A stretch of DNA of 64,000 bases from Solirubrobacterales bacterium (GCA_035688955.1 DASSMJ010000017.1:14061-78060), one strand, 5' to 3'. Shown: positions 1,823 through 6,082, counted from the first letter of the stretch. Made by a program: numbers and translations. The notes: generated by a model from the letters alone, not told the origin.

Positions 1823-1872
1823 CCTATAGCGGGGCGGGATTCGAACCCGCGACCTTCGGGTTATGAGCCCGA
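1823..1872 (-). repeat. Displaced 3' half of tRNA-fMet (att-type direct repeat of 6005..6055)
   Basis: 50 nt align to 6005..6055 with 48 identities, one 1-nt indel in the G-run and two substitutions. The two substitutions are compensatory in the T-stem (gcagg/cctgc versus gcggg/cccgc). The repeat covers acceptor 3' strand, T-arm, variable region and anticodon arm. The 5' half of a tRNA is absent. Confidence 0.8.
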
Positions 1873-1988
1873 ACCTGGCGGTCGGCTGAACTACGTGGAA
1901 CTAGGTTTCAAGCGGTTTTCAGGGAATCGAGCTACGTGGAGATCGGCTGGAATCGGTGGGGCATGTTGCCCCATTCGTTGCCCCAGGA

Positions 1989-2372
1989 CTACACCGACGA
2001 AGCCGCCACAACGGAAACGTCGTCGTGGGCAATCGCCCCGCCTTTCTGAGCTCGCGCGGTCACCAGTGCCGGCTTGCGATCCGCGGGTGCCACGTCCAGC
2101 ACGAACTCGATCCCCAGACTTCGGACAGCGTTGATGATCGTGTCGATCTCCGGGTTGTGCTCCCCGGACTCGAGCTTGACGACGCGCGGCTGCGAGACGC
2201 CCAGCTTCTTCGCCAGGGCCCTCTGGCTCAGTTTGTGCTCAGCGCGATAGCGCAGCAGCGTCGCCGCGAACTCCCGGGCAGGAGCAAGCCTCTGCCACTC
2301 TGCTCGAAAGCTCGGGTCGGCAAGCTGCTCCTCGGCCACAAGGGCATCGAAACTCTTGTCTGGGCTCTTCAT
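1989..2372 (-). CDS. XRE-family HTH protein, HigA-like antitoxin candidate
   Basis: 127 aa. LRYRAEHKLSQRALAKKLGVSQPRVVKLESGEHNPEIDTIINAVRSLG is a Cro/C1 (XRE) HTH. It sits immediately downstream of a small RelE/HigB/Gp49-like ORF, in toxin-first order. Confidence 0.7.
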   Translation of the reverse strand: MKSPDKSFDALVAEEQLADPSFRAEWQRLAPAREFAATLLRYRAEHKLSQRALAKKLGVSQPRVVKLESGEHNPEIDTIINAVRSLGIEFVLDVAPADRKPALVTARAQKGGAIAHDDVSVVAASSV

Positions 2373-2383
2373 TGCTGACTCAT

Positions 2384-2401
2384 GATAATAAATTTATTAT
2401 C
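2384..2401. promoter_or_regulatory. 18-bp perfect AT-rich palindrome GATAATAAATTTATTATC between toxin and antitoxin ORFs
   Basis: Read directly from the sequence. It is the only strongly AT-rich stretch in the neighbourhood and lies in the 33-nt gap between the toxin stop (2406) and the antitoxin start (2372). Candidate operator or internal promoter. Confidence 0.4.
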
Positions 2402-2405
2402 GGAG

Positions 2406-2738
2406 TCAACTGCGACGCTTCAAACGAGCACCCGCTGCCACCACCGCTCGATCGAAGTCTTTCTTCTTCGCCGCTACCGCCAGGACGACGAACAGATCGC
2501 CGAACCGCGCATAGATCGGCCGAGCCTCACAAGCGCCCTGCTTCGGCCGTAACTCAAACAGGTTGGCCTCACCCTTCAGCGACTTCATATGCGGTGACGG
2601 CAGATCGGGACCGAGATCTTTCAGCTTCTGCACCACATTGAAGACCGCCTTGCGGTCTCCGCGCGACTTCACGTCCTCGAAGTCGATGACCGCGTCGCTG
2701 GCGAAGTCCACGATCCAATTTTTTGGCTGCATCGCCAT
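2406..2738 (-). CDS. RelE/HigB/Gp49-like (DUF891-type) toxin candidate
   Basis: 110 aa. The size, KLKDLGPDLPSPHMKSLKG..NLFELRPKQG...RPIYARFGDLFVVLAVAAKKKDF and the position upstream of an XRE HTH gene fit phage-Gp49/HigB-type toxins. Confidence 0.6.
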   Translation of the reverse strand: MAMQPKNWIVDFASDAVIDFEDVKSRGDRKAVFNVVQKLKDLGPDLPSPHMKSLKGEANLFELRPKQGACEARPIYARFGDLFVVLAVAAKKKDFDRAVVAAGARLKRRS

Positions 2739-4655: not shown

Positions 4656-4683
4656 TTCCTCTCTGTGGGCGCAGCGGCATCAG

Positions 4684-5943
4684 CTAAGGCTGCCGCTCAA
4701 ACTGCAAGAACGTCTTTATCCAGTCCGTGCGCTCATCCGGACTGAGCGCCTTGCCGATCCAGCGCGCAAAGTTTCCGGTCGCAACCTTCGAGTCGTATGC
4801 CTCTCCGGCGGTGGCCTTCTGGCCTTCATGGACAATCCGATTTCGCAGCCGATAGCAATCGGCATGCCAGCGCCCCGGGGCTGAGGATTCGTCGGCGAGC
4901 GTGAGATCCTCGTCGAGGAATTGGGGAAGAAGTTGGGTTAGCTGGTTCTTGAATGGTGCTGCCAGCACGCCTCCCAACTTGTCCGGATCGCGCTCAAGGC
5001 ACACCCAAAGCACTCGGAAGATCGTGTTCACGAGCACCTCGGTCGCGGTACACGCCGCAATCACCGATTGGTCGTACCGCCCAGCCCCCAGATGGTGCTC
5101 TGCTGCCTGGTACAGCTCGACAAACTGAAAAAAGGGCGCTCGACCAGCGCCGGCCTCATGAACTGCCTCGATCGCGTAGACAAGTTCCTCCTCAGAGCGC
5201 TCCTCGGGCAGGTCGTCACGAATGGTTGCGTGCACATCAAGCGTCCCACTCGGCCCGGTCCAGCCTTCCGGAGCTGGGAAGAGATTCAGTTTCCACGGCG
5301 TCTCCCGCGGGAGATCGATTCGCGACAGCGTCGAGATGTGCCACTCGTCGCGTAGTCCCGTGAGGATTACGACGTATCTGTTCAGGAAGAGCAGGGCCTC
5401 ATCAAGGCGTCGCGACAACCATTCGAGTACGTCGTGTCGAAAGTGCTCGTCATCGGCCTCTTCCTTGCCAAGCGGCGTTTCGCCTACGAGCTCATAAATC
5501 GTAATTTGGACAACACTCCGCAGTTCATCGGCTCCGCGAGCCGTGACTCCGCGAGGACCATTCGGTTGCTTCACGTTCTTCCAGTCCGGAAAGGCGCGTT
5601 CGGCCGCGAGAAGAGGAACCCAACCGTCGACTCGAGTCTGCTTCACCTCGACACGAAAGCGCGGCCGCAGATCGTCCTCCGGCACTGGCGCTGCCATCCC
5701 GACCATGTGGCCGATTGCGTCGGGATTCCAGCCAGGCCAGCTCCCCCCGCGATCACTCACCAAGAAGATAAGGCCATCAATCCGCAAGCAATGAGGAAGT
5801 TCAAGCAAGAAGGTCAGGCCAGAGATTTGCTCTACATCCGGATCGGGATCAATTCGATCAGGATCAAATTGGCGCGGCTTCAGTTCTTCCATCACTGCTT
5901 CTCTCGGACCTCGTGTTGCCCCAGGCGTTGCCCCAGAAGCCAT
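4684..5943 (-). CDS. Hypothetical 419-aa protein with a C-terminal HEPN-like domain (islet gene A)
   Basis: Longest ORF at this locus. The C-terminal region has YQAAEHHLGAGRYDQSVIAACTATEVLVN ... CYRLRNRIVHEG, an R-x4-H HEPN-type signature (R367..H372 = nt 4828..4845). The N-terminal ~270 aa are unrecognised. The start is uncertain: 5943, or the ATG at 5892. Confidence 0.6.
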   Translation of the reverse strand: MASGATPGATRGPREAVMEELKPRQFDPDRIDPDPDVEQISGLTFLLELPHCLRIDGLIFLVSDRGGSWPGWNPDAIGHMVGMAAPVPEDDLRPRFRVEVKQTRVDGWVPLLAAERAFPDWKNVKQPNGPRGVTARGADELRSVVQITIYELVGETPLGKEEADDEHFRHDVLEWLSRRLDEALLFLNRYVVILTGLRDEWHISTLSRIDLPRETPWKLNLFPAPEGWTGPSGTLDVHATIRDDLPEERSEEELVYAIEAVHEAGAGRAPFFQFVELYQAAEHHLGAGRYDQSVIAACTATEVLVNTIFRVLWVCLERDPDKLGGVLAAPFKNQLTQLLPQFLDEDLTLADESSAPGRWHADCYRLRNRIVHEGQKATAGEAYDSKVATGNFARWIGKALSPDERTDWIKTFLQFERQP

Positions 5944-5977
5944 TTTGCGGCCTATTGTCTACGTCCTCAGAAATGCG

Positions 5978-6001
5978 AAAACCCCGCATTTGCGGGGTTT
6001 T
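5978..6001 (-). terminator. Intrinsic terminator hairpin directly downstream of tRNA-fMet (bidirectional in form)
   Basis: AAAACCCCGC-ATTT-GCGGGGTTTT: a 10-bp stem with a 4-nt loop, flanked by an A-run and a T-run. It starts 8 nt after the tRNA 3' end on the minus strand. Confidence 0.6.
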
Positions 6002-6008
6002 CGTCCTA

Positions 6009-6082
6009 TAGCGGGGGCAGGATTCGAACCTGCGACCTTCGGGTTATGAGCCCGACGAGCTACCTGGCTGCTCCACCCCGCG
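6009..6082 (-). tRNA. Initiator tRNA-Met (anticodon CAT)
   Basis: The reverse complement reads CGCGGGGTGGAGCAGCCAGGTAGCTCGTCGGGCTCATAACCCGAAGGTCGCAGGTTCGAATCCTGCCCCCGCTA. This is near-identical in layout to E. coli tRNA-fMet: unpaired 1:72 position, three G:C pairs in the anticodon stem, CAT anticodon. CCA is not encoded. Confidence 0.9.

Follow-up and report, generated by a model that had tools for sequence, protein, structure and literature searches.

An integrase-less islet at an initiator tRNA gene of a Solirubrobacterales bacterium shares its arms with tyrosine integrase-bearing elements at tRNA-Arg

How does a segment of DNA that encodes no recombinase come to lie beside a tRNA gene, with a copy of the 3′ part of that gene at its far end? 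The question is raised by a 64-kb window, i.e., the whole stretch of 64,000 nt from a Solirubrobacterales bacterium (GCA_035688955.1 DASSMJ010000017.1:14061-78060) analyzed here, in which an islet of ~4.2 kb is located between the initiator tRNA-Met (tRNA-fMet) gene and a tRNA fragment. An earlier note on this DNA had proposed site-specific integration into the tRNA 3′ end, whereby the element supplies a new 3′ half and the old one is displaced. Comparative data support that proposal and add what it had missed, namely conserved arms of ~115 nt on each side of the islet that link it to a family of elements with a tyrosine integrase, referred to below as family A. We consider it likely that the islet is a non-autonomous, integrase-less family A element, similar to a cis-mobilizable element (CIME), that entered the tRNA-fMet gene by tyrosine integrase-mediated recombination. 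This view draws on the direct repeat, the low G+C content, the shared arms, the integrase-bearing elements at tRNA-Arg and the arrays of similar units at the same locus in relatives.

The intact tRNA-fMet gene was recognized by both ARAGORN and Rfam (Table 1) where the earlier note had placed it. Its initiator identity is evident by direct reading: positions 1 and 72 form a C1xU72 mismatch, and the anticodon stem has three G:C pairs in a row (29-31:39-41). The segment 6005..6055 (CCTATAGCGGGGGCAGGATTCGAACCTGCGACCTTCGGGTTATGAGCCCGA), which consists of tRNA positions 28-74 and 4 flanking nt, recurs in the same orientation at 1823..1872 (CCTATAGCGGGG-CGGGATTCGAACCCGCGACCTTCGGGTTATGAGCCCGA). As described before, the two copies agree at 48 positions and differ by an indel of a single G and by two compensatory substitutions, which convert the T-stem pair A51-U63 into G-C. 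The fragment at 1823..1872 carries the T-stem allele CGGG..CCCG and lacks one acceptor-stem G. Both this allele (in L003, L007, and L021) and CAGG..CCTG are seen in intact tRNAs of relatives, which fits a displaced host allele and an imported allele. The 42-nt gapless part of the repeat had two matches in the window at ≤3 mismatches, with a chance expectation of 0.00 (0/100 shuffles). The Rfam tRNA match on the fragment (1833..1894, 27.5 bits) is sub-threshold. The terminator hairpin of the tRNA is present on the element side of the junction, as had been claimed, and is followed by TTTT; it falls narrowly below the T-run rule of a simple terminator scanner, and in relatives its stem sequences vary while the pairing is maintained.

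Base composition distinguishes the islet from its surroundings. Its G+C content is 0.602 versus 0.690 in the rest of the window, and among all 4.1-kb windows across the 64 kb it is the lowest in G+C (minimum 0.605 at 2001; median 0.690). Third-codon-position G+C (GC3) is 0.66-0.79 in the four islet genes and 0.86-0.92 in the flanking genes, so that the lower G+C and codon bias previously judged by eye are borne out by the computed values. Between the repeats, Pfam, NCBIfam, and PADLOC identified no recombinase, and phmmer with XerD and Bxb1 queries found none among the open reading frames (ORFs) of the window, with no serine recombinase detected there by the Bxb1 query. Matches that these two queries did produce were backed by Pfam. 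A tblastn search of the window with family A integrases returned only matches with E > 0.5. The earlier statement that the islet lacks an integrase thus held in every one of these searches. Two islet proteins, P419 and P599, were considered as unrecognized recombinases and rejected, since other units with the same arms have neither of them, P419 is HEPN-like and P599 is a tetratricopeptide repeat (TPR) protein.

What connects the islet to other elements are its ends. In the 64 kb, the sequence GTTGCCCCA occurs four times only (at 1965, 1977, 5915, and 5927), always at the islet ends. Alignment of the left arm with those of 11 other tRNA-fMet units and three integrase-bearing tRNA-Arg elements revealed invariant blocks: a generic left arm of ~115 nt, found by each fragment, contains two CTACGTGGA boxes, GGCTGGAAT boxes, and, innermost, the pair GTTGCCCCA-NNN-GTTGCCCCA. 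The generic right arm (~230 nt) adjoins the intact tRNA or, within an array, the next fragment; it is composed, in this order, of the terminator hairpin, a spacer of ~50 nt, a GTTGCCCCA pair at ~93 nt from the end of the tRNA, a GTCCACCTACGTTCG box, and another conserved hairpin. In family A units, direct 9-mers spaced 12 nt apart flank the core on either side, at a distance that does not vary, and the arms are common to units with unrelated cargo. The islet has the left arm with all of its boxes and, on the right, only the proximal part, with the terminator and both GTTGCCCCA boxes. Its right arm extends for ~115 nt from the tRNA and breaks off immediately inward of the box pair, at the start of the P419 gene; the distal ~120 nt, including the GTCCACCTACGTTCG box, are absent. 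Among the loci listed, to which the counts of arms and bounded units given here all refer, the distal box is present in 38/72 tRNA-fMet right arms versus 15/16 tRNA-Arg right arms. On the arms, Rfam yielded nothing beyond the tRNA and the sub-threshold match on the fragment. A scan of IMG/VR for the box pair gave 27 matches without extended arm similarity, which were judged to be due to chance. Lambda-like tyrosine integrases have arm-type att sites, and by analogy the boxes appear to resemble such sites.

Sister arm families occur at the same tRNA, with the same geometry and another repeated 8-9-mer located ~82 nt from the tRNA end. Two copies of TTGGTACCC are found in L005, L016, L028, L034, L039, L051, L057, and L075, the TTGGAACC type in L063 and L068, two copies of TGAGTCCC in L071, and two copies of TTGTGACCC in L046. 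This suggests several integrase specificities that share one attB. A fixed geometry combined with a changing 9-mer is what co-evolution of binding sites and their protein would be expected to produce. Mixed arrays also occur, as in L233, where a family B unit is followed by a family A unit.

We compared the locus in relatives using one genome per species, scanned with the neighboring Ppx protein, which gave 80 loci, all from Solirubrobacterales metagenome-assembled genomes (MAGs), with Ppx 72-87% identical to that of the window. At least 120 further loci came from soil metagenome contigs searched for the box pair. The tRNA-fMet gene is located just upstream of ppx in nearly all of the genome loci, and 25 of the 80 have one to three extra tRNA 3′ copies, 0.2-9 kb beyond it. 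These fragments start at tRNA position 28 or 32/33, i.e., in the anticodon stem or loop. Most of the soil-contig loci are likewise tRNA-fMet units and arrays, and tandem accretion is seen in L050, L072, L146, L202, and L216. The cargo between tRNA-fMet and the fragment varies by locus and is dominated by defense-type functions: restriction-modification genes or C5 methylases with Vsr and a GHKL ATPase, TIR, RiboL-PSP HEPN, Schlafen/AlbA, AbiEii (AbiE), CHAT, ApeA, SMC-like ATPases, and toxin-antitoxin (TA) pairs. The tRNA-fMet gene is, therefore, an insertion hotspot in ~200 related loci (80 from genomes and at least 120 from soil contigs).

The earlier note had named two outcomes that would speak against insertion: the same genes in relatives without the repeats, or a tRNA-derived repeat family unrelated to integration. 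No relative shows the former, and the tRNA copy, though widespread, recurs exactly as the scar that integration leaves. The note had also proposed a comparison with an empty tRNA-fMet locus, and here the relatives offered none: no locus was shown to be empty, most others have a recognizable element end by the tRNA, and the few without one (L008, L018, L043, L044, and L067) lay outside the check. L013, the locus with the most similar left flank, was rejected as an empty site: between its AHSA1 gene and the tRNA there is a segment of low G+C that contains a Fic gene.

A second, unrelated type of element competes for the tRNA-fMet gene. Genes for large serine recombinases (Resolvase, Recombinase, and Zn_ribbon_recom domains) are found at L058:8142-9866, L022:3678-5375, L012:2441-4213, and L004:27-932, and in L163 near 10321. 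They read into the 3′ part of tRNA-fMet in antisense, with the TGA stop codon opposite the anticodon loop, and a perfect hairpin, GACTGAAGGCGCTCG..CGAGCGCCTTCAGTC, lies inside the 3′ coding end and probably doubles as the tRNA terminator. A regular expression for the catalytic motif gave nothing; these genes were found by phmmer with the Bxb1 query.

A subset of the soil-contig loci is located at tRNA-Arg(ACG), with the same two arms and a core that copies tRNA-Arg from position 27-28 on. The arms of the two sites are 85-90% alike, with one core replaced by the other. From the anticodon stem up to and including the T-arm, however, even the fMet and Arg cores are nearly identical, the differences amounting to one pair in the stem and four bases in the loop. 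The tRNA-Arg elements encode a tyrosine recombinase of 390-410 aa (~395 aa; Pfam Phage_integrase and Phage_int_SAM_5), the gene of which is 0.5-2 kb inside the right arm. Identity among these integrases is 77-92%, and no phage or plasmid integrase in annotated collections is more than 31% identical to them; the protein family comprises 1480 database proteins at E < 1e-30. The earlier note had suggested a search for the att core beside tyrosine integrase-bearing elements; with those at tRNA-Arg, the islet has the arms in common.

Integrase genes of this kind are rare at tRNA-fMet. L141 has an intact integrase there, 60-63% identical to the Arg type, L112 a C-terminal remnant at the expected position beside the right arm, and L076 a partial copy. 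With bounded units defined by a core on either side and a box pair at each end, tRNA-fMet accounts for 26 (0.85-12.6 kb, median 5.5 kb), none of which (0/26) contains a full integrase and one of which contains a remnant. At tRNA-Arg, an integrase gene is present in 3/3 bounded units, intact in two and frameshifted in one. The Pfam scan of 120 island ORFs covers the 25 commonest families, so that a lone Phage_integrase match could be hidden; tblastn with the family integrases covers this gap for family A, not for every integrase type. In 3/3 genomes inspectable at both sites, i.e., L072 (chromosome OY970245.1), L054 (contig CAVTGX010000004.1), and L021 (assembly DATLQI), an intact integrase element with both arms at tRNA-Arg coexists with integrase-less tRNA-fMet units. 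The two sites are ~50 kb apart in L072.

In L010, L026, L066, L143, L196, L225, and L138, two small ORFs come first inside the right arm. Their products have no Pfam match; one is ~100 aa long and contains '..GGLLH..', and the other is ~134 aa long and contains 'DRERRDALYELV..DFRLLEDIGW'. Both proteins are common to integrase-bearing and many integrase-less units, are absent from the islet, and are candidates for directionality or regulatory factors.

These observations fit the following model. The autonomous form of family A would consist of the ~395-aa tyrosine integrase and an attP made up of right arm, core, and left arm. The right arm of ~230 nt would bring a replacement tRNA terminator and two GTTGCCCCA boxes, the core a tRNA copy that begins at the anticodon stem-loop and runs to the 3′ end, and the left arm of ~115 nt two more GTTGCCCCA boxes together with the CTACGTGGA and GGCTGGAAT boxes. 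A crossover, probably in the anticodon loop, would fuse the tRNA 3′ half carried by the element to the 5′ half of the host gene and push the host 3′ half to the far end, the element thereby replacing both the tRNA 3′ half and its terminator; repeated integration events would build tandem arrays. Since its entry the islet would have lost int, the small right-arm-proximal genes, and the distal half of the right arm, the simplest history being one deletion that extended from just inside the GTTGCCCCA boxes through int. The islet is unable to move on its own, and further movement would require a family A integrase in trans, co-excision with a neighboring unit, or homologous recombination.

Several pairs of loci bear on whether such units travel. 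L040:3109-7220 and L059:2833-6942 are 96.5% identical over 4.1 kb, while ppx and the neighboring gene are 79% identical; L026:6840-9739 and L066:4571-7493 are 96.4% identical over 2.9 kb, with core genes at 83%. The higA gene by the left arm shows 88-89% nucleotide identity in L072 and L039, where ppx shows 75-81%. The integrase-less units of these pairs resemble each other much more closely than their hosts do. Such units therefore do pass between lineages, and the near-identity of these pairs indicates recent horizontal transfer, which could proceed either through an integrase in trans or through homologous recombination across the conserved tRNA and arms. The L040 and L059 units are mosaic, having only the left 4.1 kb in common. 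The earlier description of the islet as stranded therefore holds in part: the lack of an integrase and the truncated right arm agree with it, whereas similar integrase-less units moved recently and a matching integrase is co-resident in all three genomes inspected.

Are the tRNA-fMet units decayed relatives of the tRNA-Arg elements, or their dependents? It is possible, if rather doubtful, that they form a satellite lineage of integrase-less cassettes moved in trans by the integrase of the tRNA-Arg element. The confinement of integrase genes in bounded units to tRNA-Arg, the arms shared across both sites with switched cores, the helper integrase in each inspectable genome, the 96% identity of integrase-less units against 79-83% for host core genes, and the divergence of higA, out of step with that of the hosts, would all follow from such a lineage. 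Yet the integrase remnants in L112 and L076 and the integrase-bearing unit in L141 show that some tRNA-fMet units arise by decay, half of the tRNA-fMet right arms are truncated, including that of the islet, no excised form was observed, and the core differences of one stem pair and four loop bases leave cross-recognition by one integrase unproven. If satellites they are, the tRNA-Arg integrase might service a second attB in the initiator tRNA, loading and unloading integrase-less defense cassettes in arrays; we put this forward tentatively, and with the same reserve the idea that such delivery has an integron-like outcome on tRNA att sites, with the islet as one cassette. For the islet itself, the notion of a cassette that is possibly still mobile is more doubtful again, its copy being truncated. 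Alternatively, cassettes could be exchanged by homologous recombination, with the arms and the tRNA segment as fixed landmarks, arrays arising by unequal crossing-over, and no site-specific recombinase involved. Conserved flanks are good recombination anchors, and both the mosaic L040/L059 units and the L026/L066 pair, whose near-identical units are found beside different T-stem alleles, suggest that homologous exchange contributes. As a full account we regard it as unlikely, because the arms are built like recombinase binding sites whose geometry is kept in sister families while the 9-mer changes, a tyrosine integrase accompanies these arms at a second tRNA, and the fragments start exactly at the anticodon stem or loop.

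Insertion or mobilization of the islet by a large serine recombinase is very improbable. In the five loci described above, such genes do lie directly against the tRNA 3′ end or against the outermost fragment, but those elements have end sequences of their own and no GTTGCCCCA arms; serine integrases use short att sites without arm sites, none is encoded in the window, and family A arms co-occur with a tyrosine integrase. There is next to no room for a repeat of non-insertional origin, be it a coincidental match, a duplicate tRNA gene that has decayed, or one of a set of dispersed tRNA-derived repeats. The sub-threshold Rfam match that reaches slightly past the repeat would suit such an origin, which is refuted for practical purposes by the shuffle test and by the recurrence of the same layout in dozens of loci with different cargo; moreover, the copy begins exactly at tRNA position 28, continues into the family arm, and bounds the segment of lowest G+C in the window. 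The entry of the islet as a family A element, which we prefer, has its own points of weakness. The 64-kb window contains no integrase and leaves a helper integrase in the source genome unproven: nine named clusters (seven integrases) were checked, and no accession of the source MAG (HET741..) was among the top integrase matches. Neither an empty attB nor an unambiguous circular attP junction was found, although junctions within tandem arrays look like attP. Binding of the integrase to the boxes is predicted from geometry. About half of the tRNA-fMet right arms, that of the islet included, are without the distal box, and many units, probably also the islet, may accordingly be inert. Finally, the different T-stem alleles of the tRNAs adjoining the 96%-identical L026 and L066 units are unlike simple delivery of a 3′ half and hint at gene conversion or homologous exchange.

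Among known systems, the islet comes closest to the CIMEs of Streptococcus integrative and conjugative element (ICE) and integrative and mobilizable element (IME) systems, which have lost their integration genes, retain attL and attR at the 3′ end of the target gene, and accrete in tandem with other elements at one att site (PMC5704250). With both cores, both box pairs, and no int, the islet corresponds to that definition, apart from its truncated right arm. In contrast to CIMEs, the hosts of family A are actinobacterial, no conjugation module was seen in the autonomous relatives, units measure 0.8-12.6 kb, and cis-mobilization with a neighbor is here only conjectural. With integrase-bearing tRNA and tmRNA islands, i.e., those of the Islander type (PMC4383910) and the Pseudomonas tmRNA defense islands (PMC12595487), the family shares the regenerated tRNA, the displaced 3′ fragment at the far end, defense-type cargo without transfer genes, and a tyrosine integrase. 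The islet displays two of the Islander-type features, an intact tRNA with an island-supplied 3′ part and a fragment in direct orientation at the far end; it has no internal integrase, the cognate one being found in relatives only, and Islander-type criteria would consequently miss it. Unlike Islander-type islands, family A uses the same arms at two tRNA targets, and its tRNA-fMet copies are almost all integrase-less. The tycheposons of Prochlorococcus (10.1101/2020.12.28.424599) are also small cargo elements at tRNA genes, where older units are pushed outward and leave partial tRNAs and integrase fragments, but they are defined by an integrase and a replication module, neither of which the islet has. 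No replication genes were seen in the family A elements of the three integrase-carrying genomes inspected. IMEX elements are integrative, have no recombinase of their own, and exploit the host Xer recombinases (XerCD at dif). An integrated element reliant on a recombinase in trans is the likeness; the differences are that the islet occupies a tRNA gene with long arms, as in heteronomous (lambda-type) tyrosine integrases, and that the likely helper for this type of islet is encoded by another mobile element. Assignment of the islet as an IMEX or an integron cassette was rejected on account of its tRNA site with long arms and the lack of any dif-like or attC-like feature.

Taken alone, the islet is an ordinary decayed tRNA island; it is the family-level pattern that merits follow-up. 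No description of family A, its arms, or its integrase was found in full-text searches or in integrase searches of annotated phage and plasmid collections, which is not proof of absence, and we regard family A as a large, previously undescribed family of tRNA-targeting mobile elements. It makes the initiator tRNA an undetected hotspot for defense-type genes in an abundant uncultured soil order, populated by integrase-less units that escape integrase-based island finders. The paired GTTGCCCCA boxes and the tRNA fragment together provide a search handle for such units and their unknown cargo, including the P419 family. Were the tRNA-Arg integrase to act on both cores, this would amount to natural retargeting of an integrase by core swapping, of relevance to integrase-based genome engineering.

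Table 1. Features of the islet and its borders (positions in the window; ".", no strand assigned; AF2, AlphaFold2).
Feature	Position	Strand	Evidence
Initiator tRNA-Met(CAT), intact	6009..6082	-	ARAGORN; Rfam tRNA 63.9 bits
tRNA 3′ half, probably element-supplied (attL core)	6009..6055, tRNA positions 28-74	-	Sequence reading
tRNA 3′ fragment, probably the displaced original (attR core)	1823..1872	-	Direct repeat; shuffle test; sub-threshold Rfam
Left arm (attR arm), complete, ~115 nt	1873..1988	.	Alignment with 11 other tRNA-fMet units and 3 tRNA-Arg elements
Left-arm CTACGTGGA boxes, two	1891-1900, 1932-1941	.	Motif positions
Left-arm GATCGGCTGGAAT box	1941-1953	.	Motif position
Left-arm paired GTTGCCCCA boxes	1965-1973, 1977-1985	.	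Motif positions
Right arm (attL arm), proximal ~115 nt only	5893..6008	.	Alignment of right arms
Right-arm paired GTTGCCCCA boxes	5915-5923, 5927-5935	.	Motif positions
tRNA terminator hairpin within right arm	5978..6001	.	Hairpin and T-run
higA-like HTH (XRE) antitoxin gene, directly inside left arm	1989..2372	-	Pfam HTH_3 7e-12
higB-like toxin gene (Gp49/RelE superfamily)	2406..2738	-	Pfam Gp49 1.2e-8
P599 gene, 599 aa	2856..4655	-	Weak Pfam TPR_19; AF2; Foldseek
P419 gene, 402 aa from internal ATG at 5892	4684..5892	-	AF2; Foldseek; homolog motif
PIN_10-domain gene, outside islet beside the tRNA fragment	1574..1813	-	Pfam PIN_10 3e-10; GC3 0.725

The islet contains four accessory genes, a TA pair and two others, as the earlier note had stated. 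Pfam identified the pair as HigBA: higB is upstream of higA on the same strand, in the toxin-first order of HigBA systems, and the two genes are predicted to form a type II TA system, i.e., an addiction module. In L011, L039, L072, L126, L127, and L216, higB also lies by the left arm, at 84-92% amino acid identity. HigB and P599 received no PADLOC or NCBIfam assignment. P599 has three transmembrane helices at its N terminus and also contains a small alpha/beta domain and an extended TPR solenoid (AlphaFold2 model, pLDDT 82.3); PDB profile matches were to consensus TPR proteins, and Foldseek retrieved TPR superhelices (E 3e-6). Its 22 homologs all come from Solirubrobacterales-type soil data, and it occurs together with P419 in one other locus only, L229, there in pieces, so the pair is not obligate.

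For P419, a longer ORF of 419 aa extends to 5943 and overlaps the arm boxes; the identical NCBI entry, HET7416630.1, has 402 aa, and the true start is almost certainly the internal ATG at 5892. Pfam, NCBIfam, and PADLOC gave no match, and a PDB sequence search returned nothing. The AlphaFold2 model (pLDDT 87.6) shows a beta-rich domain at the N terminus and, at the C terminus, a helical domain that is HEPN-like; the HEPN proteins 2hsb and 2q00 were the best Foldseek matches (probability 0.99, target TM 0.67, but E 0.2). HEPN domains typically combine a fold of four helices with a conserved Rx4-6H motif. In P419, an RNxxxH motif (residues 350-355 of RLRNRIVH, 348-355) is invariant or nearly so in 33 homologs, which adjoin AbiE, ApeA-HEPN, Schlafen, and AbiTii genes, a ThiF-JAB-MBL cluster, and TA pairs; one homolog is within another family A unit (L233). 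The HEPN-like domain, the motif, and the defense-type neighbors together make P419 a candidate HEPN nuclease effector, and the cargo of the islet as a whole most plausibly serves a stress or anti-phage function. A paralog in the same MAG (L232, HET7417073.1) is 72% identical and located beside metallo-beta-lactamase, ThiF, and JAB genes, while another homolog, L230:8001-9194, lies along with a ParE/Phd pair in an insertion that separates clpP from clpX. From its genomic contexts, P419 seems to behave like a free-moving accessory gene.

Outside the islet, next to the tRNA fragment, the PIN_10-domain gene overlaps the stop codon of a glyoxalase-family gene and has no counterpart at the corresponding position in L167, L173, and L003. 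Because of its low GC3, it is probably the remnant of an earlier insertion that no longer has a boundary of its own, and not part of the islet. On the other side, a non-coding gap of ~350 nt with 57% G+C (7133-7479) separates the convergent ppx and thiamine diphosphate (ThDP)-enzyme genes, with no above-threshold Rfam family. Elsewhere in the window, the genes at 19771-21276, 57875-59794, and 62420-63193 have GC3 values of 0.66-0.74, against the 0.84-0.96 usual here, and are possibly other foreign segments.

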